Shown one piece after another: positions 11,351 through 64,000 of a stretch of 64,000 nucleotides of DNA. The notes under the pieces are model-generated. The model was given only the letters and a program-made list of their open reading frames with translations. It searched no databases and was not told where the DNA came from. The stretch comes from a virus (taxonomy: Duplodnaviria; Caudoviricetes), in the IMG/VR virus record IMGVR_UViG_2848092901_000003, positions 1 through 64,000 of that record; one strand, given 5' to 3'. The translations under genes and the position numbers were made by a program. Numbering within the stretch: the stretch's first letter is position 1; each line of letters begins with the position of its first letter.

Positions 11351-11415
11351 GCGACTAAGCCCCAGGGCGGCGGAGCGATCTGCCGCCCTGTTGGGGTATG
11401 GAAGGAAGTGACGAA

Positions 11416-13369: not shown

Positions 13370-13801
13370 ATGAGCATCAATAAATTCAACTGCGAGGGCT
13401 ATTACGACCCCACAGCCTATGAAGCCCTCGCCAATATAGAAAAAGAAGAACGCGCCCTCCGCGCTTTCCGGCCTATCGTGTATATCTGCTCCCCCTATGC
13501 CGGAGATGTGACCGCCAATGTAGAGAATGCCCGGAGATACAGCCGCTTCGCCGTGGACATGGGATACATCCCTATTGCGCCGCATCTGTTGTTTCCGCAG
13601 TTTCTCTGTGACGACAATCCAAAAGAACGCCAGCTGGGGCTGTTCTTTGGAAACGCCCTCATGAGCAAATGCTCCGAGGTGTGGGTGTTCGGCGAATACA
13701 TCTCTTCCGGCATGGAAGCGGAGATCCGCAGAGCCAAGTGGAAGAACTACCGTTTGAGATATTTTACGGCTGCGTGCGAGGAGGTAACCGACTATGCGTG
13801 A
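13370..13801 (+). CDS. DUF4406-like (nucleoside deoxyribosyltransferase-fold) protein
   Basis: VYICSPYAGD, APHLLFPQF, SSGMEAEI. Confidence 0.7.
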   Translation: MSINKFNCEGYYDPTAYEALANIEKEERALRAFRPIVYICSPYAGDVTANVENARRYSRFAVDMGYIPIAPHLLFPQFLCDDNPKERQLGLFFGNALMSKCSEVWVFGEYISSGMEAEIRRAKWKNYRLRYFTAACEEVTDYA

Positions 13802-27955: not shown

Positions 27956-28069
27956 ATAAAAGAACATAATAACCTGAGATCGAGCCGCACGGCTCTTTCT
28001 CTCGTACAGAACCATTTTGGAAGTCGCAGCGATGCGGCTATTTTTTATGCCATTTGGGAGGTGGTGTCT

Positions 28070-45384: not shown

Positions 45385-46356
45385 ATGGCTTACACAAACA
45401 GTTCACTGGTATCTTACACAAAACTCAGCCCGAACCACTCCGGGGAGAGGACGCACTCCATCGACCGCATCACGCCCCACTGTGTGGTAGGACAATGCTC
45501 TGTGGAAACACTGGGGAATATCTTCCTGCCGGTTTCCAAACAGGCAAGCTGCAACTATGGTATCGGCGAGGACGGCAGAATCGGAATGTATGTAGAGGAA
45601 AAGAACCGCTCCTGGTGTTCCTCTTCCAATGCAAACGACCAGAGGGCGGTCACCATTGAGTGCGCGTCCGATACGACCGAGCCGTATGCCTTCAAGGATG
45701 TGGTCTACCAAAAGCTGATCACGCTCTGCGCGGATATCTGCAAGCGAAACGGCAAGAAAAAGCTCCTGTGGCTGGGAGACAAGGACAAGACGCTCTCTTA
45801 TGAGCCAAAATCGGATGAGATGGTTCTGACCGTCCACCGCTGGTTTGCCAACAAGTCCTGTCCGGGAAACTGGATGTATGCCCGGATGGGCGATCTTGCG
45901 GAAAAGGTCACGGCGCAGCTTGGCGGCGGGATATCCGGGAACACAGAGACGGAGCATCCCGAAAAGCTGACAGAGGGCTATTACCGTGTCCGCAAGACAT
46001 GGGCGGACAGTAAGACGCAGAAAGGCGCTTACAAGATTCTCTCTAACGCCAAGAGGTGCGCCGACAGCAACCCAGGCTACAGCGTGTTTGACGATAACGG
46101 GGTCAATATCTACTCGCCGGGCGGGCCTGCTTCTGCGCCGTCCGAAGATGTGCCATTTCTTGTCCAGGTCAGCATTTCTGACCTGAATATCCGCAAAGGG
46201 CCGGGAACGGACTATGCCAAGACCGGTAAGTTTACAGGAAAAGGCGTATTTACCATCATGGAGGTCAAATCCGGGCAGGGTTCCACGGCTGGCTGGGGCC
46301 GGCTGAAATCCGGCGCGGGATGGATCTCGCTTGACTACGCAGCCAAAATCAAATAA
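45385..46356 (+). CDS. Endolysin: Amidase_2 plus SH3-like cell-wall binding domain
   Basis: ITPHCVVG, TIECAS, HRWFANKSCPG; C-terminal LNIRKGPGT..GWISLDY. Confidence 0.9.
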   Translation: MAYTNSSLVSYTKLSPNHSGERTHSIDRITPHCVVGQCSVETLGNIFLPVSKQASCNYGIGEDGRIGMYVEEKNRSWCSSSNANDQRAVTIECASDTTEPYAFKDVVYQKLITLCADICKRNGKKKLLWLGDKDKTLSYEPKSDEMVLTVHRWFANKSCPGNWMYARMGDLAEKVTAQLGGGISGNTETEHPEKLTEGYYRVRKTWADSKTQKGAYKILSNAKRCADSNPGYSVFDDNGVNIYSPGGPASAPSEDVPFLVQVSISDLNIRKGPGTDYAKTGKFTGKGVFTIMEVKSGQGSTAGWGRLKSGAGWISLDYAAKIK

Positions 46357-47068: not shown

Positions 47069-47111
47069 TTGGCTTTCAGAGTGATATATAGTGTCGGAAA
47101 GGAGTGATTTC

Positions 47112-48878
47112 ATGCGGATTGTAAATAAAATCGAAGCGAAAACACCGCAGATGCCGCGCCGCAAAAGGGTCGCTGCCTACGCAAGAGTCTCAATGGAGTC
47201 CGAGCGGCTGCAGCACTCCCTTTCGGCACAGGTCAGCTTTTACAGCAGTTTGATACAGAGCAACCCCGCCTGGGAATATGTGGGCGTATACGCCGACAAC
47301 GGAATAACCGGCACCAAAGCCGAAGCCCGCGAAGAGTTCAATCGGATGATTGCCGACTGCGAAGCCGGAAAAATCGACATTGTTCTGACAAAGAGTATCT
47401 CCCGTTTCGCGCGCAACACCGTTGACCTGTTGAATACAGTGCGCAGGCTCAAGGAACTGGGCGTTTCCGTGCAATTTGAAAAGGAGCGCATCGACTCCCT
47501 CACCGAGGACGGTGAGTTGATGCTGACCCTTTTAGCATCCTTTGCCCAGGAGGAGATACGCAGCCTGTCGGACAACGTCAAATGGGGTACCCGGAAACGA
47601 TTTGAAAAAGGTATTCCCAATGGTCGCTTTCAAATCTACGGGTACCGCTGGGAGGGCGATCATCTGGTTGTCCATGAGGAGGAGGCAAAGATCGTTCGGC
47701 TCATCTACGACAATTACATGAATGGTTTATCAGCGGAAACCACAGAGAAGCAGCTTGCCGAGATGGGTGTGAAATCCTATAAGGGCCAGCACTTCGGCAA
47801 TACCTCTATCAGACAGATCCTCGGCAACATCACTTATACGGGCAACCTTCTGTTCCAGAAGGAATATGTGCAGGACCCCATCAGCAAGAAAAGCAAAATT
47901 AACCGTGGGGAGCTGCCGCAGTATTTCGTGAAGAACACCCACGAAGCCATCATCCCGATGGAGGTCTACCAGGCGGTGCAGACCGAGAAAGCGCGCCGCC
48001 GGGAGCTTGGGGCTTTGGCAAACTGGAGCATCAATACCTCCTGCTTTACCAGCAAAATCAAGTGCGGTCGGTGCGGAAAGAGCTATCAGCGCTCCAACCG
48101 CAAGGGACGAAAAGATCCTGACGCTAACTACACCATCTGGGTCTGCGGGACTCGAAGAAAAACCGGGAATGCCAAGTGCCAAAACAAGGACATCCCAGAA
48201 CAGATACTCAAGGAAGCCTGCGCTGTGGTCATGGGACTGGATACGTTTGATGAGATCATCTTTTCAGAGCAGATCGACCGCATTGAGATCCCTGCTCCGA
48301 ATGAGATGATTTTCTATTTTAAGGATGGCCACATTGTACCGCACCACTGGGAATCCACCATGCGGAAGGACTGCTGGACGGATGAGCGCAGAGCCGCCAA
48401 GGGACGGTATGTGCAGGAGCATCAGCTCGGCCCCAACACTTCCTGCTTTACCAGCCGCATTCGCTGCGACAGCTGCGGCGAGAACTACCGCAGGCAGCGT
48501 TCACGGCACAAAGATGGCAGCTTTGATTCCGTATGGCGATGTGCGTCAGGCGGAAAATGCCAAAGCCCCAGCATCAAGGAAGATGCCCTCAAAAACCTCT
48601 GTGCGGACGCTATGGGTCTGGAGGAATTTAGTGAGACGGTTTTCCGTGAGCAGATTGTCTGCATTCACATCACGGCTCCATATCAGCTTTCCATCCGCTT
48701 CTTTGACGGGCATACCTTCGAGACGGCATGGGAAAACAAGCGGAAGATGCCCCGGCATACAGAGGAGCGAAAACAGCATATGCGAGAAGTAATGATACAG
48801 AGATGGAGGGAAAAACGTGGCGAAAGTAACGACAATACCGGCGACGATAAGCCGATTCACGGCAACGCCGATCAATGA
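47112..48878 (+). CDS. Large serine recombinase 1 with duplicated Zn-ribbon module
   Basis: AAYARVS, KSISRFARN, NITYTGNLLFQK, HEAII; two NTSCFTSxIxC repeats. Confidence 0.93.
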   Translation: MRIVNKIEAKTPQMPRRKRVAAYARVSMESERLQHSLSAQVSFYSSLIQSNPAWEYVGVYADNGITGTKAEAREEFNRMIADCEAGKIDIVLTKSISRFARNTVDLLNTVRRLKELGVSVQFEKERIDSLTEDGELMLTLLASFAQEEIRSLSDNVKWGTRKRFEKGIPNGRFQIYGYRWEGDHLVVHEEEAKIVRLIYDNYMNGLSAETTEKQLAEMGVKSYKGQHFGNTSIRQILGNITYTGNLLFQKEYVQDPISKKSKINRGELPQYFVKNTHEAIIPMEVYQAVQTEKARRRELGALANWSINTSCFTSKIKCGRCGKSYQRSNRKGRKDPDANYTIWVCGTRRKTGNAKCQNKDIPEQILKEACAVVMGLDTFDEIIFSEQIDRIEIPAPNEMIFYFKDGHIVPHHWESTMRKDCWTDERRAAKGRYVQEHQLGPNTSCFTSRIRCDSCGENYRRQRSRHKDGSFDSVWRCASGGKCQSPSIKEDALKNLCADAMGLEEFSETVFREQIVCIHITAPYQLSIRFFDGHTFETAWENKRKMPRHTEERKQHMREVMIQRWREKRGESNDNTGDDKPIHGNADQ

Positions 48879-50388
48879 AAAGAAAAAGCGCCGCACCGCC
48901 GCCTACGCCCGTGTTTCCACGGACAGCGAGGAGCAGCTCACCAGCTACAGCGCCCAGGTGGACTATTACACCAACTATATCAAAAGCCGGGACGATTGGG
49001 AGTTTGTTTCCGTGTATACGGACGAGGGCATAACGGGTACGAATACCAAGCACCGCGAGGGATTCAAACGCATGGTGGCGGATGCACTGGCTGGCAAGAT
49101 AGACCTCATCGTCACCAAATCGGTCAGCCGCTTTGCCCGAAATACGGTAGACAGCCTGACCACGGTGCGCCAGCTCAAGGAAAAAGGCGTGGAGATCTAT
49201 TTTGAGAAAGAAAACATCTGGACCTTGGACAGCAAGGGCGAACTGCTCATCACCATCATGTCCTCACTGGCGCAGGAGGAAAGCCGCAGCATTTCAGAGA
49301 ACTGTACCTGGGGACAGAGAAAACGGTTTGCTGACGGGAAGGTCACCGTGCCATTCAAACGGTTTCTCGGCTATGATCGGGGACCCGATGGCAATCTGGT
49401 TTTGAATAAGGACGAAGCGGTTATCATCCGCCGCATTTACAGTATGTTCCTGCAAGGCATGACGCCGCACGGCATTGCCGCCAGGCTAACCGCTGACGGC
49501 ATTAAATCGCCGGGCGGCAAGGATAAATGGAACGCCGGAGCGGTTCGGAGTATCCTCACTAACGAAAAATATAAGGGTGATGCACTTCTTCAGAAAAGCT
49601 ATACGGTTGATTTCCTCACCAAAAAGAAAAAGGTCAACGAGGGCGAAATTCCGCAGTATTATGTGGAGGGCAACCACGAAGCCATCATTTCCCCAGAGGT
49701 ATTCGAGATGGTTCAGCAGGAAATGGAACGGCGCAGCAAGCGCGGTAGACGAAGCGGTGTCCACCTTTTCTCCGGCAAAATTCGCTGTGGCGAATGCGGA
49801 AGCTGGTACGGCTCCAAAACCTGGCACTCCAATGATAAGTACAAAAAGATCATCTGGCAGTGCAATCACAAATTTGATGGCGACCACAAATGCACCACAC
49901 CACACCTTACAAATGAAGATATCCACCGCTACTTTATTTCGGCAGTCAACCAGCTTCTTGCCCAGAAGGATACCATCATCGCATCCTTGACCGGCGGCTT
50001 GGCCCTTGCCTTTGACCTCACGCCTCTGCAAGCCCAAGAAACTGCACTGATTGAGGAAGTACAGATGCTTGCCGATGCGGTTGAAAAGTGCATCTACGAA
50101 AATGCTCATGTGGCCCTTGACCAGACAGAATACCAGAAACGCTATGACGGACTGGTCCACCGCTACGATGAAGCTAAAGTCAAACTGGGTGCCATCACCG
50201 AGCAGATCGCCGATAAAAAGGCACGGAGAGGCACTATTGAGGAGTTCCTCAAGGTTCTCCGGGAGCAGGACGGACTGGTCACCGATTTTCAAACAAACCT
50301 CTGGTGCGGACTGGTGGATTTTATGACCGTCTACTCCGCAGACGATGTGCGGATCACCTTCAAAAACGGTGCGGAAATAAAGGCATAA
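48817..50388 (+). CDS. Large serine recombinase 2
   Basis: AAYARVSTD, KSVSRFARN, NEKYKGDALLQK, CGECG, WQCNHK. Confidence 0.95.
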   Translation: MAKVTTIPATISRFTATPINEKKKRRTAAYARVSTDSEEQLTSYSAQVDYYTNYIKSRDDWEFVSVYTDEGITGTNTKHREGFKRMVADALAGKIDLIVTKSVSRFARNTVDSLTTVRQLKEKGVEIYFEKENIWTLDSKGELLITIMSSLAQEESRSISENCTWGQRKRFADGKVTVPFKRFLGYDRGPDGNLVLNKDEAVIIRRIYSMFLQGMTPHGIAARLTADGIKSPGGKDKWNAGAVRSILTNEKYKGDALLQKSYTVDFLTKKKKVNEGEIPQYYVEGNHEAIISPEVFEMVQQEMERRSKRGRRSGVHLFSGKIRCGECGSWYGSKTWHSNDKYKKIIWQCNHKFDGDHKCTTPHLTNEDIHRYFISAVNQLLAQKDTIIASLTGGLALAFDLTPLQAQETALIEEVQMLADAVEKCIYENAHVALDQTEYQKRYDGLVHRYDEAKVKLGAITEQIADKKARRGTIEEFLKVLREQDGLVTDFQTNLWCGLVDFMTVYSADDVRITFKNGAEIKA

Positions 50389-50402
50389 GCACCTACGCAA
50401 AA

Positions 50403-50443
50403 ACACCTCGCAACGAGAGCATCATTCTCCAGCTGCGAGGTGT
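50403..50443. terminator. Probable bidirectional terminator between convergent recombinase and abiH genes
   Basis: ACACCTCGCA ... TGCGAGGTGT inverted repeat flanked by A and T runs. Confidence 0.7.
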
Positions 50444-50456
50444 CTTTTGCTATTGA

Positions 50457-51413
50457 TTAGTCATCCCAAAACATTCTGCTGGGAAGAAAATAGGTTTCAA
50501 ATTTCCTGGAAAGTCCTAGAATTCCAAATACATCTTTAAGTCTTTTTTTATCGTCTTCACTATAATAATAAATAATCCATTTTGATGTTGGCTTTATTTC
50601 TTCAGCAATTCGCAAGAGATAAGGAGTGTCTACATTCCCAAACGACAAACCTATGGATACTACTTGCTCTATATCTTTTAGACTTGAAAAAAACGATTCA
50701 TTTCTCGATATAATTGCATCCGTGTCTTTATATAATGACGAGCAAAATTTTGCTATCGCGGAGCATATACTTTCTTCCCATTCTACGAACTCTTCACTTG
50801 CACACTGTGCTCTTCGTTTGTAATAATCTATAATAAATTTATTTCCATGCCCCATGATGGGTGGTATTGCAGAGCATGATGGTACTCCTCCATGCAAGTG
50901 AAGAACTGTTTTTACCCCATATACCCGCTCTAGGACATCTGTATAATTAAAATTAATGAAAATATCAGAACAATTTCCTATGAAACTCTTTTTAATGGGG
51001 CACACACCTGATGTATCTATAGACTCTAACCACTCAAGTACATATTTCTGTAAATCTGAAGAAAACCCATACTGTTCCTTCCAGTGAAGATCCAGAGTAT
51101 ATTTTATACCTTCTTCTGGCATTTGCTCTGCAAGGGAACTTGCCATATCGTGCATTCCTTCTACATCTGGGTTACCCATTTCTTCCTCAAATGTTTGCCA
51201 TAAATCTTTTAGCACTGATTTTTTCCATCTTTCTTGTGCCGCTTCAGTGTACCAAGGCTCTGTATCATCTAAAGGCTGAATGTTATACATAGCCTCAAAA
51301 TCCGTTAGAAATGACTCATGATGCGTTTCTAAGAAACTTCTGAACTCAGAATATGGAGTTCTAATACCATGCTGTATGTCGAAACCGTTTCCTACCAAAT
51401 ACAATGTTTTCAT
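50457..51413 (-). CDS. abiH: AbiH-family abortive infection protein
   Basis: LYLVGNGFDIQHGIRTPYSEF N-terminus; FNYT; HLHG; IGLSFGNVDTPY. Confidence 0.8.
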   Translation of the reverse strand: MKTLYLVGNGFDIQHGIRTPYSEFRSFLETHHESFLTDFEAMYNIQPLDDTEPWYTEAAQERWKKSVLKDLWQTFEEEMGNPDVEGMHDMASSLAEQMPEEGIKYTLDLHWKEQYGFSSDLQKYVLEWLESIDTSGVCPIKKSFIGNCSDIFINFNYTDVLERVYGVKTVLHLHGGVPSCSAIPPIMGHGNKFIIDYYKRRAQCASEEFVEWEESICSAIAKFCSSLYKDTDAIISRNESFFSSLKDIEQVVSIGLSFGNVDTPYLLRIAEEIKPTSKWIIYYYSEDDKKRLKDVFGILGLSRKFETYFLPSRMFWDD

Positions 51414-51442
51414 GTTATTCCTCCTATTTGAACGGCAATATA

Positions 51443-51471
51443 AAAATAGCCGGGATGCCCCGGTCTGTCAA
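51443..51471 (-). promoter_or_regulatory. Possible SigA promoter of abiH
   Basis: TTGACA (51471-51466), 17 bp spacer, TATTTT. Confidence 0.45.
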
Positions 51472-51523
51472 CACACCCCAAGAGCAGATTTTACACCGCA
51501 AGGGCACACTTTTTAATTTTACC

Positions 51524-51560
51524 CATACCTTGTATCAAACTCGGTATGATTATTTCTAAA
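51524..51560. other. Prophage right attachment junction
   Basis: Host frame NILE breaks after GA (51556-51555); adjacent CATACC-N13-GGTATG inverted repeat (51524-51548). Confidence 0.7.
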
Positions 51561-53982
51561 ATGTTTCCCTGTTTAAATCCCATATCCGAAAGCGTCTTAT
51601 ATATTCCGTCAATTACGGTTTTCGGTGTATAAAAGCTCGTTAAAGTAGATTCTCTTGCAGCTTCGTATTCTGCATGTGATAAGTTCTCATTTAGAAAAGC
51701 CCTTGCTTCTTTCCACTGACCTTCCTTGCTTTCATCAAAGACTTCGGAAAGTCCGCCCCAGCCTACATACCTTGCTAAAACTTCCTGAGCTGTACTGTCA
51801 AGCTCTCTTTGTCCGCTCTCCACTCTGTTAAGCATGGAAATTGCTTCAAGGTTATTATTTAACCTTTCGCTTGGACTTAACTTTTCAGGGAGCGTTTCTT
51901 CTGTAATTTTAAAGTTATGAGCTTCCGCTTTCCTTATTTGAGTTTCCTCAGTAGTCTGCTCTGGCTGTTTATATGTCAGGTTTTCAAATACCCTCTCAAG
52001 GTCGCTTTCCAGACGATAAGGAATGACATCGAAGCTTGTTATCATCCCGCCAAAATACTCGGTGTTGTCCTTCACCGTTACCGTATTTAGGTTCTTTCTC
52101 ATATCATCAAAGCGTGTTATGGTATGGTTTTTGTCCTTGTATTTAACTTCATCACCGACAATAAAGTTCGGTCTTTCAAGACTTATTTTATTCAGCAAGT
52201 CCTCATTATCTGTAAAGTCTACAATCGGAATTTGATGGTTTCCACTTCTTACCGGATCAAGCCACAAATCATATCTTCCTGTGATTTCATTTTTAGAAAT
52301 TTCTCTGACTTTATATTCTTCATGATTAAAATAGACGGTATCGCCTGCTTTAACTGCAAACTCTTCTAAAAGGCTGTCCTCTTTTTCATTCAGTTCTACT
52401 TCTTCTCTTTCTTTGAGGTAATCAAATAAGGTAGCTTGAACTGTGCCACGCTTTGTAGCTTCTTCTGTTTCTTCAGGTGCTTCAAGCTCTACTTTATCTT
52501 CAAAGCTAAGTTCTCCATTAAAGACAAACTGAAGCTCCTGCTCATCCATTTGTTTTATAAGCTCTATATCTTTAAGTTCTCTAAAGGTCTTTGGAAAATC
52601 CTCTAAAATGAGCCTCTGGGCATTTAATTCTTTCAGTTCCTCAAGGTTAAAATATCCCCATTCAGGCTCTATTCCAAGAACAAGTCCAAAGGCATCACCG
52701 CTTTCCCTGTCATACTCCGTCATATACCAAGTCCAATTTGAACGAAAAGGAATAATATATGCTGCATGAACCTGCTTATCCGCTAAATCTACATCCTCCT
52801 GTGCGTAAATCTCTGGCACTCTTTCAAGAATTTCATCAGGCATTAGATTTCCAGGATCATTTTTAGAATAATATTGCGGTTCTTTTACTTCTTCTATCTC
52901 TGCCGTACTTTCTGTTTCCTTTTCCTCAAAATAAAGTTTTTTAGAAAGCAGCTCATCAATATGCTTTGCAACACTTGTCCAAGTAAGGAACACATCATTA
53001 CAATCATTCTTCTGTAATTTAAAACCCTTTGCATCGTGCCATTCATCACTTCCCATTGCACCTGACACAACGTGAGAATGTCCTCCGATTCCATATTCAT
53101 CTTTTAGGAAATTGGCTTTTTCCTGCAAAGTATGATTTTCTTTAAAAAACTTGGTGATTCGTTCTTTTCCTCTATCAACGCCGCTTCCTCTTGAAAGGCT
53201 TTCAAGGACTTCATCTTCTGTAATAAAGAGCTTTACCTTCGGAAGTTCTGTCAGATTGGTACTATATTCCTTTCGTTGCAGCTCAAGTTCTTGCAACTTC
53301 TGATAAAGACTATCTACCTTGTGATAATGATACCTTAATACATTTCTGCTTTCTTTGTATCCTTCTAAAAACCTGCTATATTCTTTGATTGTTTCTTTCA
53401 GATATTCAGGATTTTTTAATGCTTCAGATAATCTTTTCGTTTCTTGCGGAAAGCCACCACCTCTTTCAAAAGAGTTGAAATATCCTTGCTCTATTCCTTC
53501 TTCGCTTAAATCGTGCGTTAGATACCATAAGGATTCTGAAATTCTATCCCTTTCATAGTCCTGTGCCTCTAAAAGTTCTACATTTGTAGCAAACTCACCT
53601 CTGTCAAGAAGTTCATTTATCCTACTTGCTGCATCACTCCAACTTAAAATTTGTGTATTATCCTCTCTTGCCGATGTTCCATAAGCTAAATGAATACCTT
53701 TATCCGAATACCAGGAAGATACTTCTCTTTCATCAATGTAAAATCCGTTTCCGCCTTTAAAGGTATCTTTGAGGTATTCTCCCAATTCTTCTATGCTCTT
53801 GCCTTTTGAAAACTCAGCAATAACAGGAAGCCTACCGCCATCATGATTTCCTCCGTTAATAAGGACGGTATCTATATCCTTCTCAGTTAGCGGAATAGTA
53901 AGGCTTATCTGTCCATAAGAATTTTCGGGTAAAGAAAAAGAAGCCTTTTCAGCTTCTATTATCCCTTTATCCGTATTGTCTT

Positions 53983-54390
53983 TTAAATCTCCACTACTTC
54001 CTTGATGGTCATTTCTTTGAGAGCTGAAATCATCGCCCCATACTGCGGATTGTTCTCGTCCTCTATCTTCCAAGCTGCTATCAACTTTGGCTTCTCTGCT
54101 CTCATAAACTCTACTGCCTGTTTCTGAATATCCATCAGGTGTCCTGTCAGCTTCTTCTCCTTGTATAGATCCAAAAGCATCTCGAAGTGGCTCTGCTCCT
54201 CGCTCTGTGAAAGGTAATTCAGCCTCATCACTGCGTAGGTCGGATTCGGATACTTCCTTATAAAGTCCGTCTGTTCCTCCAAGCTGTTTAGCGTATTCTC
54301 CCTGATTTTTTCTATTATCTCGTCCGTACTCTCCATTTCGGAGAACTCGCTCGTTTTCATTTCTTTCCTGATCATCTCGTCGAAATACAT
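53983..54390 (-). CDS. TnpV-like ORF nested in an alternative frame of the helicase gene
   Basis: GAGGAGGT RBS 8 nt before ATG; 135 codons; LNYL..KLTGHLMDIQKQA..KEVV resembles TnpV by eye. Confidence 0.6.
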   Translation of the reverse strand: MYFDEMIRKEMKTSEFSEMESTDEIIEKIRENTLNSLEEQTDFIRKYPNPTYAVMRLNYLSQSEEQSHFEMLLDLYKEKKLTGHLMDIQKQAVEFMRAEKPKLIAAWKIEDENNPQYGAMISALKEMTIKEVVEI

Positions 54391-55189
54391 TTTCTTCTAC
54401 CTCCTCTAATTCTTCTTTAATTTTATTATATCCCGCTTCTTTTCCTATTAAAACTTCTTTTTGAAGCTCAAGCTCTTTGCTTTTTTGAATGGTTTCATCA
54501 ATAATCTTTCCGCTAATATCCGATACACTTTCACCAAGGCTCATTAAGGATATGCTGTCAAATCTTTGAAAATTTTCTCTTAAAAGCTCATAATCCATCG
54601 GATAATCTAACTTAAATCTTGAAGCTACCGCATAGCTTACCGAGTCCCTTACAAACTTGGTAAATGATATTCTATCCTCATCCGCTACTCTAAGTTCATT
54701 CATTAAGGTATCTATTTTTTCATCACCGTAGAGTCTGCTTAAAGAAAAGATGTTTTCAAGTGTGCTTTCACTTTCCTCATAGCCCTCGCTTTTTATCATT
54801 TCCTTTAAGACATCTTGATGGGCTTCTTTATCAAATCTCCAAAGATTGACCTCGTTGACATCCCTGTTTTTTGAAACTGTCTGGCTTATATCAAAGATAT
54901 AGTCCACCTTTTTATATGTGCCGTAATCCTCTAAAATTGGTATCCCTTTCTGCCCTCGCATAACCGTTCGGTTAAAGCGTTCCCTCCAGTAGTCGAACTT
55001 GGCACAGGCTGTCGCTTCAGGATTTTTATCATATATACTTAATTGACTTCTAAAATCATACCTTTGATTGTTTCCGACAACTTTTAGGAGCTTTAGATAT
55101 TCTGCTTCATTATACAAAACATCTTGTTTTATTAGCTCCAAAATGTTATGAAAATCATTTATTCGCATTTTTACCTCCTTCTTTTTTCA

Positions 55190-55226
55190 AACAAAAAAGG
55201 CGGTTAGATTTTACTCTAATCACCTT
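55190..55226 (-). terminator. Intrinsic terminator downstream of the KilA-N gene
   Basis: AAGGTGATTAGA-N6-TCTAACCGCCTT followed by a T-run on the minus strand. Confidence 0.7.
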
Positions 55227-55250
55227 CGCTATATACCAAATATTATTACT

Positions 55251-56054
55251 CTATTTCAATTTTTTAATTGATTCACTTTCAGATAGTATCTTCATTTGTT
55301 CAATAGCTATTGCATTTAATTTTTCCAATCTTTCAGATTGGCTCATGCCTTCATTTATAAATACCGCATTAAGATTCTCAAGATTAGAAAGGCAGACAAG
55401 CTGTGATATATCCGCATAATCTCTAATATTGCCTTTTAAATCCGGATTTTCATCACGCCACTCCTTAGCTGTTATTCCAAATAGAGAAACATTAAGAATA
55501 TCCGCTTCACTTGCATAAATAAAATTGATTTTTTCTTTTGAAAGTTTATCCGGTACAAGTTTGTTTTTAATGGCATCTGTGTGAATTCTATAATTGATTT
55601 TTGCCAAATTTCTCTTAATATCCCATCCTAACTTCTTTTGTTCTTCTTCCTTTAGGCGTTCAAATTCCTTGATTAAATATAATTTAAAGTATGGCGATAC
55701 CCAAGAAGCAAACTCAAACGCTATATCTTTATGAGCATAAGTTCCACCATATCTTCCTGCTCTCGCAACGATACCGATAGAATTAGTTTTTTCCACCCAT
55801 TGCTTGACCGATAATATAAAACGGTTAAATCCTGCTTCATTTTTAATTCCCTCGAATTCGGGGGAATTAAAATTCGTGTTATACATTTCTTCCCAAATAC
55901 CTAAAAACTCTATTGTATTCTTGTTTCTGAGCCACTTTTCAATCAAAGCAGAACCGTTCTCAATATTTCTAACCATATCCGTTAAAGAAATATAATCTCT
56001 ATTGTCTATGGCAATAATGCTGATTTCTGAACCTTCAACATTTATTTTAGACAT
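55251..56054 (-). CDS. KilA-N domain protein
   Basis: YISLTDMV, WLRNKNTIEFLGIWE, GRYGGTYAHKDIAFEF; extended -10 TGCTATAAT at 56099-56091. Confidence 0.88.
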   Translation of the reverse strand: MSKINVEGSEISIIAIDNRDYISLTDMVRNIENGSALIEKWLRNKNTIEFLGIWEEMYNTNFNSPEFEGIKNEAGFNRFILSVKQWVEKTNSIGIVARAGRYGGTYAHKDIAFEFASWVSPYFKLYLIKEFERLKEEEQKKLGWDIKRNLAKINYRIHTDAIKNKLVPDKLSKEKINFIYASEADILNVSLFGITAKEWRDENPDLKGNIRDYADISQLVCLSNLENLNAVFINEGMSQSERLEKLNAIAIEQMKILSESESIKKLK

Positions 56055-56138
56055 ATAATCACCTCTCAATCATTAAATTGATTACTTTGCATTATAGCAT
56101 TTTTAGAGCATTTTTTCCACGCTGAAATTAGTGCTGTC

Positions 56139-57845
56139 TTACTTGCGATATGTCAAAACCGCTTCTTTTATCTCATTTTCAATCGCATCTAAAAATTCTT
56201 TCTTAGAGGATTTACCCTGAGCAATATCAGATAATTCCATTTCCCACTTTGCTGTCGTTTCTGCCGACTTAAAGGTATCTGCTACAATCGTTACAAGGCT
56301 GATTCCTTTATGCGTTGCAATTAGATTCTTCTTATCTCTTTCGACAAATCTCTTAAAGATTAGATTTTCAATAATTCCTGCCCTTGTTGCCGGAGTGCCA
56401 AGACCTTTTCTTTCCACCTCTACACCTTTTTCTAAGGCATCATTTCCCGCAATCTCCATAGACTTTAAGAGCGTATCTTCAGTAAAGTGTTTCGGAGGTT
56501 GGGTAAATTTTTCTTTAACCTCTTTATTTTCAACGCTCAAAACATCACCAACACTTACATCGGGCAATACAGCATCTTCACTCTTTTTTGATTTGTATTC
56601 TTTAAGGTATTTGCTAAAGCCTTCATCCTTAATTACCTTACCTGAACTTGTAAATTCAAAACCGTCAAATGAAGCTACAATCTTTGTTGTATTTTCAATA
56701 AGCGGATAGCCTACACTTGCATGAAATTTATCGGATATAAGGAAGTAAACTTTTGCTTCACTTAAAGGTAATTCAGAAACATCTTCTTTTACTGAACTGA
56801 TTGTCGGTATGATTGCATGATGGTCCGTAACCTTTTTAGAGTTAAATACTACCTTGATACGCTCTGTATCAAAGTCATTTTTACCCAAAATGTTGTTGAC
56901 TGTACTCACAATCATATCCTCTGTTAAACATCTGCTGTCTGTTCTGGGGTAAGTAATCAGTTTCTTTTCATACAGGCTTTGAGTATAGTCAAGTGTCTGC
57001 TTGGCACTATATCCAAAATATTTATTGCACTCCCTTTGAAGCGTAGTTAGGTCAAAAGGTAAATCAGGCTTTGTAATTTTTTCTTTTTGAATAACATCAG
57101 TAATTTCAATCTTATCGCCTACTAAACTTATAAGCTGTTCAGCAGCAACTTCATCATCAATTCTGTCTGTGGAGAGTGTAAATCCATTCATAGAAAGCTC
57201 TACTGTGTAATATTTTTCTTTCTGATAATTTGCTATCTCATCATCTCTTTTTACAATCATGGCAAGGGTAGGTGTCTGCACTCTGCCAACACTGTAATTT
57301 TGCTGATACAGACAAGAGTAGAGCCTACTAATATTCATTCCGACTAACCAATCCGCAATAGCTCTTGCCTGTGCCGATTCAAAGAGATTATCATAGTCTT
57401 TTCCGTCTGTTAGGTTATCAAAACCCTCTTTAATGGCACTATCTTCCATTGAAGAAATCCAAAGGCGTTTCATCTTCTTTTTACAATTCACTTGATTATA
57501 TACAAGTCTAAAAATACTTTCTCCCTCACGCCCTGCATCGCACGCATTGATAACCGTATCAACCTCCTTATCATTCATCAGCTTTTTAAGGATGTTAAAC
57601 TGCTTCTTGGTTGCCTTTGCTACTTCATACTTGTAGTCGCTCGGAATAATCGGTAAATCAGCCATATTCCACTTGGCGTACTTTTCATCATAAGCATCCG
57701 GATTTGCCATTTGAATTAGGTGTCCAACGCACCAGCTCACCCTATATCCGTTTCCTTCATAATATCCGTCTTTCTTTTTATTTGCTCCAATAACCTTTGC
57801 AATGGAGATTGCAACACTCGGCTTTTCTGCAATAACTAACTTCAT
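56139..57845 (-). CDS. topB: Type IA DNA topoisomerase III of the ICE
   Basis: IAEKPS, DAGREGE, GRVQTPTL, ITYPRTDS, GLGTPATR. Confidence 0.93.
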   Translation of the reverse strand: MKLVIAEKPSVAISIAKVIGANKKKDGYYEGNGYRVSWCVGHLIQMANPDAYDEKYAKWNMADLPIIPSDYKYEVAKATKKQFNILKKLMNDKEVDTVINACDAGREGESIFRLVYNQVNCKKKMKRLWISSMEDSAIKEGFDNLTDGKDYDNLFESAQARAIADWLVGMNISRLYSCLYQQNYSVGRVQTPTLAMIVKRDDEIANYQKEKYYTVELSMNGFTLSTDRIDDEVAAEQLISLVGDKIEITDVIQKEKITKPDLPFDLTTLQRECNKYFGYSAKQTLDYTQSLYEKKLITYPRTDSRCLTEDMIVSTVNNILGKNDFDTERIKVVFNSKKVTDHHAIIPTISSVKEDVSELPLSEAKVYFLISDKFHASVGYPLIENTTKIVASFDGFEFTSSGKVIKDEGFSKYLKEYKSKKSEDAVLPDVSVGDVLSVENKEVKEKFTQPPKHFTEDTLLKSMEIAGNDALEKGVEVERKGLGTPATRAGIIENLIFKRFVERDKKNLIATHKGISLVTIVADTFKSAETTAKWEMELSDIAQGKSSKKEFLDAIENEIKEAVLTYRK

Positions 57846-57939
57846 CTGTGTTTTCCTCCTGTTATAAATCAAAATAGGGCGAAAGATGTTACTCTCCCGC
57901 CCTAACTTTGCACCCAAAATAATATGTTTTTAGGTGCGT

Positions 57940-59481
57940 TTATTCTTCATCTTCTACTTCATCTGCATCATTTATTTCTTCCTCGCTTTCAGATTCAGAA
58001 AAGAAATCATCATCTTCCTCCTCTAAGGCTTCAAGTTCTTTATCTTCTTTCTTTTTCACAACCTTAAAATAGTAGCCTGCTCCTAATGCACCACCTACTA
58101 CAAGAAGCAAAATAATATAGGTTCCTAAATTACTCTTTTCGTCCTTCTTCTCAGGCTTTACTTCTTCCTTAACAGGTTCTTCTTTTACTACTTCCTGCTT
58201 TGGTGCTTCTTTTTTCTCCACCATGTTAAGCAAATCATCTTCAGATACTTCCGTAAGAAGCATTACATTCTCACTATCTTCATCATGATTGATGATTAAA
58301 TGAAAAGTCTTACCGTTTTTCGTTTGAAAGGTAATAAACTGCCTTGCATCTGCCGAATACTGATCCGTTTCTTTGTTATCGCTGCTATCTCCATGATGAA
58401 TCGGATACTCCTTATTTGCATTATCTTTATTCTCCGTAACGGATGCTCTCGCCTTTGACGGAGATGAAGCTACTCCCTTGTTGGTGTTTACACTCTTACT
58501 TGCAGACCCCATTGATGAATCCTGACTGTTATTCGCAGGAGCTTTTGCCGTCAACTTATTGGGATAGCGAACTTCCTTTTCTTTCTCCTTTACTTCCGTT
58601 TTGCCTTTACCGGTATCCTTTGTAGTATTACCTGAGCTTACCGAATCCGATGAGCCTTTACCGGTACTACTTACAGAAGTCTGTGGTGTTTGAGGAGAAA
58701 TACCTGAACTTGTCTTAATTCCGGAAATAGGACTAATCGGTGTAACTGATTGTGATGTTACAGGAGCTTTATTTGTTTCAGTTGCCTTTTTCTCAAGCTC
58801 TTTCACCTTTTCCGTCAGCTTATCTATTTCCTTTTTCATATCTTCTGATAAGTCCTTATTTCCCTTATCTTTCTTCATTTTTTCTTTCAGGCTATCAATT
58901 TCATCTTCAAGGTCTTTAATTTTATTCTTTTGCTTATCACTTAATTTGTCTTTGTCCTTAAGTTCGCAATTTAACTTATCAAGTTTATCCTGAAGCTCTT
59001 TTGCCTCTTTTTCTATTTTTGAAATATCGTCTTTAGAAAGCTCTGTCTGCGTTCCCTTATCTTCTGTCTGAGTGCATTCATCCTGCTTTGGCTTTTCTTC
59101 TTCCGTCTGCGTTTCCTTATCCTTAACCTCCATCTTTGCTACCTTACGGATAATCTCATCTTTTCCATCTCCCTTTACCTCATAAAACAGAAATTCATCA
59201 ATGAATTTCATATCATCTGGGAGCATTGGAAGATCTCCGCTATCAATAAGTTGTCCTTTCTCAGCCTTTATCTTTTCTTCCTTAAAGACCTTTTCATCTT
59301 CAAAGATATACCTTACATTTACTTCAACTTCCGTTTGAACAGCTTCGTTTTTTGTTGGAGCTTCAGATTTTTGCTCCTGTGCATAAACAACCGTCCAAAG
59401 ACCTAAAATACAACTAATACTTACAATTACCGCAAGTGCTACCGTCCAAAACTTATTATTCTTTTTCAAACTGGTTTTCAT
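57940..59481 (-). CDS. DUF4366 (CD1107-like) membrane protein
   Basis: N-terminal signal/TM, coiled coil, RQFITFQTKNGKTFHLII, C-terminal TM and acidic tail. Confidence 0.8.
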   Translation of the reverse strand: MKTSLKKNNKFWTVALAVIVSISCILGLWTVVYAQEQKSEAPTKNEAVQTEVEVNVRYIFEDEKVFKEEKIKAEKGQLIDSGDLPMLPDDMKFIDEFLFYEVKGDGKDEIIRKVAKMEVKDKETQTEEEKPKQDECTQTEDKGTQTELSKDDISKIEKEAKELQDKLDKLNCELKDKDKLSDKQKNKIKDLEDEIDSLKEKMKKDKGNKDLSEDMKKEIDKLTEKVKELEKKATETNKAPVTSQSVTPISPISGIKTSSGISPQTPQTSVSSTGKGSSDSVSSGNTTKDTGKGKTEVKEKEKEVRYPNKLTAKAPANNSQDSSMGSASKSVNTNKGVASSPSKARASVTENKDNANKEYPIHHGDSSDNKETDQYSADARQFITFQTKNGKTFHLIINHDEDSENVMLLTEVSEDDLLNMVEKKEAPKQEVVKEEPVKEEVKPEKKDEKSNLGTYIILLLVVGGALGAGYYFKVVKKKEDKELEALEEEDDDFFSESESEEEINDADEVEDEE

Positions 59482-59695
59482 TTGTTTTCTCCTTTTTCAT
59501 TTCTGCTTTTTGTCTGTTTACCTTTGCTATCAAATCGCTGATTGTGATGTTGTTCTTTCTGCAAATGGCAATGATTTCTTCATTTTCAAGCTCTTCTTCA
59601 CGAATGAATAAAGGCTCCAATTCTTCATCAATCAGAGCCTTTTTATCCTTTAACTTCTTTATTCTGTTTTTTACTGTTGTAAGTTCCTTTTTCAA
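59456..59695 (-). CDS. DUF4315-like small ICE protein
   Basis: Coiled coil, ENEEIIAICR; conserved position after the CHAP gene. Confidence 0.7.
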   Translation of the reverse strand: MKKELTTVKNRIKKLKDKKALIDEELEPLFIREEELENEEIIAICRKNNITISDLIAKVNRQKAEMKKEKTNENQFEKE

Positions 59696-59706
59696 ATTGT
59701 TACCTC

Positions 59707-61839
59707 CTATTTCTTTACATTTGGCGGAAAACCGAATCCTACGGGATGGTGCTTACAAAATGTTGCTATCCAATCATCTAAGGTAGTTACTCTTATTCGA
59801 CCGATGTTATCAATCACTTTTCCATCTCCAATGTAAATACCTACATGACCATAGGTAAGCCCTGCACTGCTTCCGCTACTGCTGCTTTCAACTGCCACAA
59901 GCATTCCCACTTTTAGCTTTGACCTGTCTGATGTAAAGGTATAGTTTCGGTACATATCACAGGCATTCCCGCCTATATATCCAAGTCCTGCATTTTGATA
60001 GACCTGTGATACCCACATGGCACACCAGCCTGCACCCGGAGATGGCGTAATGTATGCAGCATTAACAATCTTCTTTTGTACTTCCGTAGATGCCTCATAC
60101 TCTTTTCCACCGCCGATACCTCCATTTGCACTGATAAGGTCAGAATTACCAAAGGCTTCTCTCATATTGCCTTGTGCAAGGAACAAGGCTTCATAGTGCT
60201 TTAGATTATCGGGATAGTTTGCAAAGACCTTTCGGATAATACTGTCCATCTCTTTTTTATGAAGCGTTACGATGAGTTTTTTATACTCATAAGGTTCTTC
60301 GTGGCTTTCGGTATATTCATTGCCATCTTCATCGGTATAGGTTTCCGTAACCGTCCTGTATCTGATTTCAATTTCTTCCCTATACTCAAGGTCATACATG
60401 GACTCAAATAATTCTTTTAATATGGATTCTACTTCCGATACACTCTTTACCTCTCCGCACCTTGATGTAATGTAGGATAAAAGCTCATGGACATTATGAC
60501 CGATGTATTCTGTATTATTTAAGATATATTCATCATATCCAGGATAATTTTCTTTCACATAGTCAACTTCACTTTGAAGCTCACCCTCCATATCTGAAAA
60601 TTTCTGATTGATTTCACTTAGGACATTTGGCTTTGATAAATAGCTTGTTGTAAGCACAGAGCTTGTAGAGTTCATAAAGCCTGTCATTCCCGTTCCTGCA
60701 AAGTTAATCACAAAAGTCCCTAAGATAATGATACCTATGAAAATAAGCATTAGTCCTTTTGCTTTTCGGATAATCATATCCTTTGAGCTTTTCAGTGTTC
60801 CGATAAGTCCCTCTTTAATTCGATCTCTAAGCCTTGACTTATTCTCACGAGAAATTGCTGCCTTTACCTGATTTTTCTTTTGAAATCTTTTATATGCACT
60901 TGCTCTTTTATACTCATCCGTCTTTTTCAGTTCCTTTTTGGCATCACGAAATTCCAACTTTGACTTACGCTTTCTGATTTTATAGTCCTTATTTGTAAGG
61001 TCATAGCCTCTTTTAGCTCTTTTCTTATCAGAGTACTTCTTTATGCCATGAATGAGCTTGGAGCTTGTATCTGCTGTCTTTTCTCCTGCTTCCACTCCTT
61101 GATTTTCATCACTTCCATGAGACAAGTAATCTCTTACAGTTTCACTTCCTTTAGCAAGTCCTGAAAGGGCAGATACCTTTACCATGTCTTTTTTTAGCTT
61201 TTTCTTTTGGTCTTTTGATAGGCTGCTATAAACTTTTCCGCTGACAGCATCTTTTCCCGCCTTTTTATCATCAGCCTTATTTCCCTTTGGTGCATCGTCC
61301 TTTTTCCTTGTATAAAGGCTTTCAGAATAGTTCTTCCTCTTGTACCTGCTTTTTTGAGTCTTATGATTTTTAAAGGAATTTTCTAATGATTTTTCTTTAT
61401 GGGAAAGATTATCCTCCACATCATAGGTCGATTCAAAATAGTTGCTGTCTCTAAAGTCATTATCGTATCTGTCTATAATCCCGTCATTATCAAGGTCTTT
61501 TCCTAAAGGATCATAGATTTTTCCATCCTTAACCTCCGTAATATAATCTGATCTTCCCGTTTCAATTGCGGAATTTACGTCTCCCTTATCTGAAGTTCTA
61601 TATTTTTCGTTTCTCTTGGATGTTCCATAAGACTTTTCATTATCAGCACTTACCTTACTTGTTTTTTCATGCACTTTATCCTGAAACCGTTCTTTCTCAT
61701 GAACGATTTTACCTCTGTAATCATCGTTATGTTTTAGCTTACTTTCTTCAGGTATCGTATCTGTTTTACTATGAAACATCTCTCTTTCAAGGCTTGCCTT
61801 ATGCCTTTCCTTAAAATCCTTTTTCAGCTTCTTTCCCAT
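59707..61839 (-). CDS. CD1108-like conjugation cell-wall hydrolase with CHAP domain
   Basis: One TM segment; C-terminal GWCAMWVSQV and YGHVGIYIG. Confidence 0.85.
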   Translation of the reverse strand: MGKKLKKDFKERHKASLEREMFHSKTDTIPEESKLKHNDDYRGKIVHEKERFQDKVHEKTSKVSADNEKSYGTSKRNEKYRTSDKGDVNSAIETGRSDYITEVKDGKIYDPLGKDLDNDGIIDRYDNDFRDSNYFESTYDVEDNLSHKEKSLENSFKNHKTQKSRYKRKNYSESLYTRKKDDAPKGNKADDKKAGKDAVSGKVYSSLSKDQKKKLKKDMVKVSALSGLAKGSETVRDYLSHGSDENQGVEAGEKTADTSSKLIHGIKKYSDKKRAKRGYDLTNKDYKIRKRKSKLEFRDAKKELKKTDEYKRASAYKRFQKKNQVKAAISRENKSRLRDRIKEGLIGTLKSSKDMIIRKAKGLMLIFIGIIILGTFVINFAGTGMTGFMNSTSSVLTTSYLSKPNVLSEINQKFSDMEGELQSEVDYVKENYPGYDEYILNNTEYIGHNVHELLSYITSRCGEVKSVSEVESILKELFESMYDLEYREEIEIRYRTVTETYTDEDGNEYTESHEEPYEYKKLIVTLHKKEMDSIIRKVFANYPDNLKHYEALFLAQGNMREAFGNSDLISANGGIGGGKEYEASTEVQKKIVNAAYITPSPGAGWCAMWVSQVYQNAGLGYIGGNACDMYRNYTFTSDRSKLKVGMLVAVESSSSGSSAGLTYGHVGIYIGDGKVIDNIGRIRVTTLDDWIATFCKHHPVGFGFPPNVKK

Positions 61840-61842
61840 AGG

Positions 61843-64000
61843 CTACCTCACTTCTTCCGGCTTGGTAGTCATCTTCTGATATAAAATTGTATCTTTCGGA
61901 AACTTATCAATGAAAGGCACAATGGTATTTCCAAAGAATAAGAGTCCCTCACCTTCATTTGAATTAGTAACATATCTGAGCTGTGGAAGTGAGATTTTAA
62001 GTTTTCTTGCAAGTATCTCCCTATCTCCTGATGCTTGATTAAGCATTAAGACAAAGTCTGTATTGTCAAAGATATTTTCTATCTCCTTACTCATAAGTAG
62101 GTCTTTGACATTCTGCGTAATACCTGTTGGAATACCTCCCCATTTACGAAATCTTTTCCAAATCTCTACGGAATAGGATGCTGTCTGCTCATCTTTTAAA
62201 AGCAAATGGAACTCGTCGATATAGTACCTTGTAGCCTTGTTTCCTCTGTTTTGTGACACCTTATTCCACACCTGATCCTGAATAACAAGCATACCGATTT
62301 TCTTTAATTGACTTCCAAGCTCCTTAATATCAAAACAAAGGAGCTTCTTATTTAAATCCACATTTGACCTGTGATTAAAGACATTGAGAGACCCCGATAC
62401 ATAGATTTCCATCTCTGTTGCCAGCTTCTTACCGACCTTTTCTTCCTGCCCTTTTAACATATCGTATAGGTCTTGAAGTATCGGCATATTGTCAGGAGTA
62501 GGATGTTCAAAATACTTTTCATAGATTTTAGGAAGGCACCTATCTATAACGGACTTTTCTTCTGCTGTAAGACCACTACCGCCTACTACAAGCTCAAGCA
62601 TACTCATGATAAAGTTTGCCTTGTCTTTCAGCGGTGCATCCCCATCACCGTAGTTCATGTTTATATCAAGAGGATTCAGGTAATCCTTCGACTTACTGCT
62701 GACCTTAATGACTTCTCCCTTAAACTGCCTTACGAGGTTTCCATACTCTCCTTCCGGATCGCAGATAATCACATCATCATCTGTTACTAAAATCGCATTT
62801 GCCATTTCTCTTTTGGCACTAAAGGACTTACCGCTGCCCGGAGTTCCGAGGATTAGACCGTTTGGGTTCTTTAATTTCTTTCTATCTGCCATAATCAGGT
62901 TATGGCTTAGGGCATTTAGTCCGTAGTAAAGACTATTACTTGAATTGATAAAAAGCTCCTCTGTGGTAAATGGCATAAATACTGCCGTTGATGAGCTTGT
63001 CAATCCTCTATCTATTTCAATCTTATTTACACCAAGAGGCAGCACGCTCACTAAACCTTGTTCCTGAGAATGGTCAAGTCTTTTCAGCTTACAGTTATGC
63101 TTATTTGCAATGGAGCTTATTTGAGCAATTGTGTTATCGAGCTTTTGCACTGTCCTTGCAAAGTTCATAAAGACGATACTTACCACAAACATTCGCTCAT
63201 CTCTTGTCTGCAAGTCTTTTAAGAGGCTCTTTACATCCTCACCATAGGTAATTAAGTCCGATGGAAGAATGTCCATATCATAACCGCTTCTTACCGCCTT
63301 CTTATTTTCCTCAATTTTCATCTTATCAATATCAGTGTTTTTTCGTTTTACCATCTTAATGGCTTCCGATTGGTCGATTGCCCTAATATGAAAGGAAATA
63401 TTGATGTTATCGTCAATATCCAAAAACTCGGATAACATCCTATCTGAAAGCTCACTGGCAAGGATTTGAAAATGACTTGTTGCTCCGATGAATTTGCCGA
63501 ACTTAAAGTATCTACTCGGTGTAAAGTTAAACTCATCAGGCACAATATATGTCTTTGTGCTTTCCCTTTTCTTTAGGTCTTTGTAGGAAAATTTAAATGT
63601 TTTATTTGGATTTAAAACATCATGAAGTATCTTTAGCCTTTCTTCTCCGTTTAGGCTTTCTGCTCTTACTCCCATACTTTTAAGACTCGATAATATATCT
63701 ATCTCCAGTCTTTCAAGTTTTGATGTTGCCTGTTCTAAATTATCCGCTTCCACTGTAAAGGTTACATACTTTGATTTTTTCAATCCGTTATTTCCCTTTA
63801 CAATCTGGCTTTTAAGCATCTCTCTAAATTCAAAGCGTATATCGTCGAAACCGTCCTTTTTATCCGGTATCTGAATTGCCGACTTCATTTCTTCGTTTCG
63901 TCCGAGCTGATTGATATATGAAAACTCAATGCTGATACTTGGATCAAAAGAGTTTAGGAAGTTTGCAAATTGATTAAAAATCAAGTCCCTATCTTCATCT
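61843..64000 (-). CDS. VirB4-like conjugation ATPase, 5'-partial
   Basis: GTPGSGKS, YYIDEFH, RKWGGIPTGITQ; frame open to the window edge. Confidence 0.93.
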   Translation of the reverse strand, partial: DEDRDLIFNQFANFLNSFDPSISIEFSYINQLGRNEEMKSAIQIPDKKDGFDDIRFEFREMLKSQIVKGNNGLKKSKYVTFTVEADNLEQATSKLERLEIDILSSLKSMGVRAESLNGEERLKILHDVLNPNKTFKFSYKDLKKRESTKTYIVPDEFNFTPSRYFKFGKFIGATSHFQILASELSDRMLSEFLDIDDNINISFHIRAIDQSEAIKMVKRKNTDIDKMKIEENKKAVRSGYDMDILPSDLITYGEDVKSLLKDLQTRDERMFVVSIVFMNFARTVQKLDNTIAQISSIANKHNCKLKRLDHSQEQGLVSVLPLGVNKIEIDRGLTSSSTAVFMPFTTEELFINSSNSLYYGLNALSHNLIMADRKKLKNPNGLILGTPGSGKSFSAKREMANAILVTDDDVIICDPEGEYGNLVRQFKGEVIKVSSKSKDYLNPLDINMNYGDGDAPLKDKANFIMSMLELVVGGSGLTAEEKSVIDRCLPKIYEKYFEHPTPDNMPILQDLYDMLKGQEEKVGKKLATEMEIYVSGSLNVFNHRSNVDLNKKLLCFDIKELGSQLKKIGMLVIQDQVWNKVSQNRGNKATRYYIDEFHLLLKDEQTASYSVEIWKRFRKWGGIPTGITQNVKDLLMSKEIENIFDNTDFVLMLNQASGDREILARKLKISLPQLRYVTNSNEGEGLLFFGNTIVPFIDKFPKDTILYQKMTTKPEEVR

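Follow-up and report, generated by a model that had tools for sequence, protein, structure and literature searches.

Comparative evidence for a TnpV-like gene nested out of frame in the linker of a giant conjugative-element gene

Long overlaps of two genes on one strand are regarded as very rare among bacteria; most of the proposed cases are weakly evidenced. In phage lambda, Rz1 (about 60 codons) lies complete in the +1 frame inside Rz and has its own start; both products are functional and cooperate in lysis. The comS gene of Bacillus subtilis (46 codons, of narrow taxonomic range) is situated out of frame in srfAB, also with its own start. TnpV (PF14198) is known from Tn4451/Tn4453 and Tn6104–Tn6106, its genes have been described as stand-alone, and an Xis-like role for the TnpX recombinase has been postulated (PMC3158075). 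Polyvalent proteins of conjugative elements and phages were described by Iyer et al. 2017 (PMC5512222); that paper contains no mention of TnpV, overlapping frames or linkers.

The window, i.e., the whole 64,000-nt stretch that was analysed (positions 1 to 64,000 of the IMG/VR record IMGVR_UViG_2848092901_000003), contains an ORF, P0001, which lies inside a larger one, P0002 (Table 1). P0001 is very likely a genuine protein-coding gene of a divergent TnpV clade, placed out of frame in the disordered linker of a giant conjugative-element gene; the evidence is comparative, with no expression data. As with Rz/Rz1, the smaller gene is fully nested in the +1 frame of the same strand and has its own start. 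Unlike Rz1, it comprises 135 codons, belongs to a conjugative element and shares its DNA with a disordered linker, and its product is not known to be functionally connected with that of the host gene. The likeness to comS/srfAB consists in a small gene out of frame inside a giant multidomain bacterial gene; the gene described here, however, is three times longer than comS and represents an old family with stand-alone members, found in many Bacillota genera.

P0001 and the TnpV of the transposons named above are homologous small helical proteins of mobile elements; those transposons use large serine recombinases, and the elements with the nested gene may do so too. Compared with the classical TnpV clade, P0001 is extended at the N-terminus by ~45 residues, which are acidic, and is shorter in its C-terminal region, where the 'W-V-G-x-M-N-N' stretch is missing. 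Its gene is nested, and its product is acidic; the Xis-like role of TnpV is a mere postulate. The likeness to polyvalent proteins concerns the host gene, intact relatives of which are giant and encode methylase and helicase, and which adjoins topoisomerase III, KilA-N and transfer genes; the difference is that the window's host copy is truncated before the enzymatic domains. No published account of a nested TnpV-like arrangement was found in the literature searched. New from the window are the divergent 135-codon clade below the Pfam threshold, dN/dS per frame with flank controls, exact probabilities for the avoidance of stops, a fold prediction of the host-frame reading as a control and the stand-alone relatives as natural controls.

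Table 1. Coordinates of the nested gene, its putative signals, the host gene and the neighbouring features of the window
Feature	Position	Strand	Remarks
Nested ORF P0001	53983..54390	minus	135 codons, ATG to TAA, +1 frame of the host ORF
Shine-Dalgarno (SD) motif GAGGAGGT	54399..54406	minus	8-nt spacer, then nested ATG at 54388-54390
Nested-frame TAG	54397-54399	minus	two codons upstream of the ATG; starts with the last SD bases
TATAAT (-10-like box)	54425..54430	minus	34 nt upstream of the nested ATG; Tyr-Asn in the host frame
Weak -35-like TTTTAA	54448-54453	minus	17-nt spacer to TATAAT
Hairpin and U-run	53934..53957	minus	stem 53951-53957 with 53939-53945, loop GAAAA, U-run 53934-53938
Host ORF P0002	51491..55168	minus	1225 codons, N-terminal part of the giant conjugative-element gene
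AbiH-family gene	50457..51413	minus	PF14253, E 5.9e-50; low GC; between the host-gene break and the serine recombinases
Two tandem large serine recombinase genes	47091..50388	plus	Resolvase, Recombinase and Zn_ribbon_recom domains; prophage end
Prophage terminase	28061-29671		
Prophage tail protein	39084-41606		
Prophage amidase	45385-46356		
Prophage PolA-like gene	11398-13356		
Prophage VapE-like gene	13794-16133		

The two ORFs differ in frame by +1 (778 mod 3 = 1) and P0001 is contained entirely within P0002; the pair meets the criterion of same-strand nesting of one complete ORF within another in a different frame. The nested frame is closed by the TAG two codons upstream of the ATG, and P0001 therefore starts by initiation and not by read-in. 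Homologous loci, 85 in number, were compared, a scan based on a six-sequence alignment having contributed to them; 80 lie in genomes that represent species across many genera of Bacillota, and the others on two plasmids and on metagenome or genome contigs. The SD motif and the ATG are kept in 84 of them, with SD–ATG spacings of about 2–9 nt. The GGAGG of the SD motif is kept though the host frame reads E-E-V in some lineages and L-G-G in others, i.e., the motif stands in differing host-frame registers.

Alternatively, programmed +1 ribosomal frameshifting could produce a fusion of the N-terminal domain with TnpV, the internal SD motif acting as a frameshift stimulator. SD-stimulated frameshift sites exist, for example that of prfB, and a strong SD motif is present here in coding sequence a few bases before the A-rich GAAGAAAAUG. 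Against this stand the nested-frame TAG, which occurs in the window and in close relatives, the near-universal ATG with spacings typical of initiation, the lineage-dependent register of the SD motif, and the stand-alone relatives, which begin at the homologous ATG. Frameshifting is considered very unlikely, and initiation at the nested ATG remains the preferred reading.

The predicted product of the nested gene is acidic (net charge −9). Its AlphaFold2 model, built with a 19-sequence alignment, is all-helical, with seven predicted helices (pLDDT 91.4, pTM 0.83). Compared directly with Pfam TnpV, P0001 gives E 0.0017 and 18.8 bits, below the gathering threshold of 27, its residues 50–112 matching positions 24–82 of the 111 in the profile. 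Fourteen of 19 full-length relatives match Pfam TnpV (best E 1.8e-15). In phmmer searches P0001 is connected to two proteins for which PF14198 is recorded, P0146 (E 1.7e-11) and P0159 (E 2.4e-6), and hhalign of the window's clade against the Pfam-positive clade gives a probability of 99.8% and E 7e-28 over 130 columns. P0001 is sub-threshold, yet homologous over most of its length; it therefore belongs to a divergent sister clade and is not a Pfam-defined TnpV member.

A word-indexed protein search returned 264 relatives, the best 120 of which are 87–95% identical and 135–136 residues long; a few are labelled 'uncharacterised' in S. pneumoniae, C. difficile, S. equi and Fusobacterium necrophorum. 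Fifty clusters were retrieved by an exhaustive search of 1.8 billion representatives. The element copy of Peptoniphilus indolicus ATCC 29427 encodes a nested protein with 99% identity. Stand-alone relatives exist at 30–47% identity, one of them located between ParB and DUF3991/Toprim genes. The NCBIfam search and the PDB sequence profile search gave no match, PHROGs returned for relatives of P0001 an unknown-function family alone, and the ESM Atlas hits were unrelated families with scores below 0.9. Foldseek against the PDB gave no informative match (best E 2.3); sigma-factor region 2 fragments (VIA-align best Z 5.5) were rejected as a fold match, being within the noise for helical proteins.

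Most close relatives come from metagenome contigs of 500–650 bp which hold the nested ORF alone. Such short contigs fit a stretch more conserved than its flanks, at which assemblies would therefore break. On these contigs the host ORF is cut at both ends and gene callers choose the nested one.

The part of P0002 with which the nested gene overlaps, residues ~260–396, is the linker. In the host frame the shared 408 nt encode a stretch rich in R, G, D, E, S, N and Q, for which no secondary structure is predicted (pLDDT 49.3, pTM 0.10; 15-sequence alignment). An intact host relative of at least 2400 aa contains an Eco57I-type methylase at residues 1263–1336 and a ResIII helicase at 1907–2101, and the host relative of S. 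pneumoniae has Eco57I, ResIII and Helicase_C domains. Intact host relatives meet the polyvalent-protein criterion (giant, methylase plus helicase, mobile element); the window copy does not have these domains. A domain search found neither a methylase nor a helicase domain in P0002, because its similarity to the intact relatives (L010 and L012) ends near 51555 with the prophage interruption; the last ~20 codons are unrelated. The nested gene is intact although the host gene is truncated.

The first-pass annotation, a reading of the window made without database searches, had reported a shifted-frame ORF of 135 codons with an GAGGAGGT-N8-ATG start, which held, the strand being minus. The low-complexity R/G/D/E/S linker that it described in the host frame held as well. 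Its 'giant helicase gene' held only in part, the window copy amounting to the N-terminal 1225 codons without methylase or helicase domain.

In many loci the giant gene is shortened to 500–1450 codons, which suggests its frequent disruption.

Selection was analysed in a codon alignment of 68 loci, with pooled Nei-Gojobori estimates of dN/dS. In both flanks, diversity by host-frame codon position is ~0.09, ~0.08 and ~0.29 for positions 1, 2 and 3, respectively. Over the nested interval the values are 0.14–0.24, 0.06–0.11 and 0.045–0.10; the phase switches exactly over this interval, where the third position of the nested frame becomes the most variable. Within the interval, dN/dS equals 0.16 in the nested frame and 1.34 in the host frame, and in the flanks 0.08 and 0.13 in the host frame and 1.3–1.5 in the +1 frame. 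Between the window and S. pneumoniae, 11, 2 and 21 differences fall on nested codon positions 1, 2 and 3, respectively. Lineages at 42–62% identity differ by conservative replacements, and their indels are in frame. Overlapping frames bias dN/dS, and because descent and transfer connect the 68 loci, the counts are not independent events; the pattern of selection recurs in lineages down to about 30% identity. What comparison shows for the nested frame is purifying selection of the ordinary kind, acting on a folded helical protein.

The simplest rival explanation would be a chance open frame in a purine-rich, T-poor linker, with the giant gene alone coding. The coding strand of the interval is indeed rich in A and G (149 A, 114 G, 79 T, 66 C), and, given the host protein, merely 1.8–4.5 stops are expected in the nested frame, with a probability of none of 0.002–0.1 per lineage. 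However, the codon-position pattern and dN/dS track the nested frame, and the third frame of the same composition has 18–24 stops. The conserved SD motif and ATG, the confident fold and the homology to TnpV and to stand-alone genes also oppose this explanation, which is already contradicted and all but excluded.

Another possibility is that an RNA or DNA element is conserved (a structured regulatory RNA or a recombination site) and not a second protein. Nucleotide-level constraints do exist at the edges of the interval (TATAAT and the hairpin), and the many short contigs mentioned above look as if the nested stretch were more conserved than its flanks. Nevertheless, a strict three-base periodicity is observed in the nested frame together with the conservative replacements and in-frame indels, the protein family has stand-alone genes, and its fold is confidently predicted. 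This possibility can be all but excluded as well, in favour of a second protein.

The host frame is open across the nested ORF in 83 of the 85 loci, in a constant +1 relation and within ORFs of at least 2400 codons. As a null model, the nested protein was recoded synonymously with the codon usage of the same host gene's flanks. This predicts 10–15 host-frame stops, and in all ten lineages examined every one of 100,000 recodings contained a stop; the exact probability of a stop-free frame is 7e-11 for the window, and for seven further lineages it lies between 2e-11 and 6e-7. In the third frame 18–24 stops were observed against 14–20 expected. Stand-alone relatives have 19–23 stops in the host-equivalent frame in three contexts and 5 stops in two contexts. 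The latter, non-nested relatives (L005:40-489 and L091:4001-4426) may represent recent escapes from the nested state.

Besides being open, the host frame in most lineages encodes a stretch of lower hydrophobicity, with a higher share of disorder-promoting residues, than stop-free synonymous recodings would give. In six of eight lineages, no more than 3 simulations in 1000 reached the real values in both measures; L081 is extreme for disorder-promoting content alone, and L077 for neither measure. The comparison shows that over the interval the host frame is selected solely to stay stop-free, polar and disorder-prone.

The opposite rival explanation accepts only the TnpV-like gene as real. According to it, the giant ORF would not be translated through, the N-terminal and downstream domains would be separate products, and the open host frame would be incidental. 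Several observations are consistent with this. In L049:2367-3597 and L009:4229-5435 the host frame is terminated within the nested gene, or 22 nt short of the nested gene's end, the nested gene being intact, and in L009 the methylase part begins as a separate ORF at 5456. There is no host-frame amino-acid constraint within the interval, as the dN/dS above unity indicates, and a terminator-like hairpin directly follows the nested gene. On the other hand, an open host frame in all but two loci stands against the minute chance probabilities given above, the stand-alone relatives carry stops in that frame, and its composition is biased beyond stop avoidance. Both flanks are, moreover, under purifying selection in the same frame without an intervening stop and restart. 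Separate products are very unlikely.

Dual coding is the reading which remains: comparison shows that both frames are kept by selection, of different kinds, one for a folded protein and the other for an open polar linker, the existence of both products being inferred. That the linker reading is the younger is suggested by the unequal constraint on the two frames and by the occurrence of TnpV genes that stand alone. Nested and stand-alone members occur in both deep clades, with at least two to three changes of state, and the ancestral state is therefore not resolved by the tree. The strength of the case lies in the 408-nt overlap with clear, separable selection signatures in both frames, in the natural controls provided by stand-alone relatives and broken-host-frame variants, and in the spread over many genera via conjugative elements which also carry resistance genes.

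The first-pass annotation had further mentioned a similar linker in other ICE helicases, which would make this a conserved dual-coding region; the counts of conserved starts and open host frames bear this out, and the frame-specific dN/dS that it had proposed as a check favours the claim. The resemblance to TnpV held via the clade, with P0001 alone remaining below the Pfam cut-off. The claim that annotation suppresses the nested ORF held for the PLSDB gene table of NC_013164.1 (pAPRE01), in which a sole 'helicase-related protein' is listed over the homologous stretch. The expression 'TnpV-like gene overprinted' is supported in the sense of dual coding, with translation inferred; the phrase leaves the direction open.

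Of 84 loci, 82 have the TATAAT hexamer ahead of the nested ATG; a scan of these 84 found none of the synonymous variants TACAAT, TATAAC or TACAAC at that site. In divergent lineages TATAAT is preceded by CTGACA, which agrees with the −35 consensus at 5 of 6 positions. In the two loci scanned for promoters, L084 and L004, the combination CTGACA-18 nt-TATAAT (11 of 12) outscores every other promoter-like match on its strand within 2 kb. At the window's own site promoter scanning called nothing, and the −35 hexamer is poor in the window's clade (3 of 6).

The hairpin begins 26 nt past the nested stop, still within the host ORF, and has the shape of an intrinsic terminator. RNAfold z-scores of −2.6 to −5.3 were obtained in 9 of the 11 lineages folded; in the other two, the nested lineages L009 and L093, the hairpin is absent. 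Over 51 distinct sequences the hairpin is 98.3% paired, three pairs being changed on both sides, and none of 500 shuffles reaches the observed value (42–76% in slid controls). No variation occurs at synonymous sites within the stem, and L008 has an unrelated stem sequence with the same hairpin shape. With these compensatory changes the hairpin meets the sequence criterion of an intrinsic (Rho-independent) terminator; termination activity itself is inferred from the sequence. In the host frame, TATAAT and the hairpin are read as short conserved peptides (Y-N and E-A..A-S-F, respectively), so part of their conservation may be at the protein level. The nested gene seems to carry its own signals, a −10 box and a terminator-like hairpin, with promoter and terminator activity inferred. 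The conservation of both is new here.

In the proposed mechanism, ribosomes would initiate internally at the nested gene's own SD motif and ATG, and an internal promoter with a partial terminator may yield a short transcript beside the long operon mRNA. Ribosomes translating the host frame would cover the hairpin and RNA polymerase would pass, whereas ribosomes in the nested frame would stop upstream of it and thus permit termination. A bolder reading, which at present appears more doubtful than credible, is that a complete transcription unit (promoter, SD motif, ORF and terminator) has been engulfed by the giant ORF and that the reading frame decides the fate of the terminator. Host-frame ribosomes would then let RNA polymerase enter the remaining 6 kb, and nested-frame ribosomes would halt ~25 nt upstream of the hairpin. 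If this were true, one DNA stretch would provide two proteins together with a frame-dependent transcriptional switch between a short, abundant and a long, rare message.

Irrespective of this switch, the locus is well suited to studying how one DNA stretch can serve a folded protein as well as a disordered linker, and which of these readings came first, and it lends itself to the question of whether promoters and terminators work inside translated ORFs. Gene callers forbid such overlaps, and the nested gene is therefore usually dropped in large assemblies, while on short contigs it replaces the host gene. Being dropped by annotation, TnpV is thus under-counted in element catalogues.

The final 13.5 kb of the window (GC 35–40%) are part of a conjugative element, with genes for a VirB4/TraG-like ATPase, topoisomerase III and proteins of the CHAP-domain, CD1107-like and KilA-N types, followed by the host ORF. 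A GC step is situated near 50400, with a GC content of 55% on the prophage side. Within window positions 1–51555 the prophage ends in the two recombinase genes and is followed by the AbiH gene; it interrupts the giant gene of the conjugative element near 51555, i.e., a phage has integrated within an ICE gene. The stretch 50400–64000 is conjugative-element DNA though the record is classed as a provirus, and the provirus boundary therefore seems to include part of the ICE.

The snf2 gene of streptococcal ICEs, the equivalent of the host gene, has been reported as an insertion hot spot for mobilisable elements, and an 11-bp repeat, TTTTGCGGACA, has been described from the termini of elements that occupy snf2 in S. 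suis (PMC9815147). No exact copy of TTTTGCGGACA was found in the window, where only one-mismatch copies occur (6 against 1.7 expected, at six sites across 3590–45997). As a mark of the junction the repeat was rejected, all of these copies being scattered in the prophage and none lying at the junction.

The only recombinases within the window are those of the inserted prophage, encoded by two genes (47091–48878 and 48817–50388) which overlap by 62 nt. Of six copies of related elements checked in four genomes, five have serine recombinase genes on the same strand 7–35 kb downstream, the element ends being unmapped; L020 has merely a weak serine recombinase match nearby. From this gene association and the old postulate on TnpV (PMC3158075), the best guess that can be offered is that the TnpV-like protein could be an accessory protein-binding factor of the element's large serine recombinase or of an establishment module, and not a basic Xis-like DNA binder.

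Two element copies with distinct variants of the nested gene are present in several genomes, including those of Peptoniphilus indolicus, Shuttleworthella satelles and Eubacteriales bacterium KG125 and others (loci L010, L055, L019, L023, L020 and L025).
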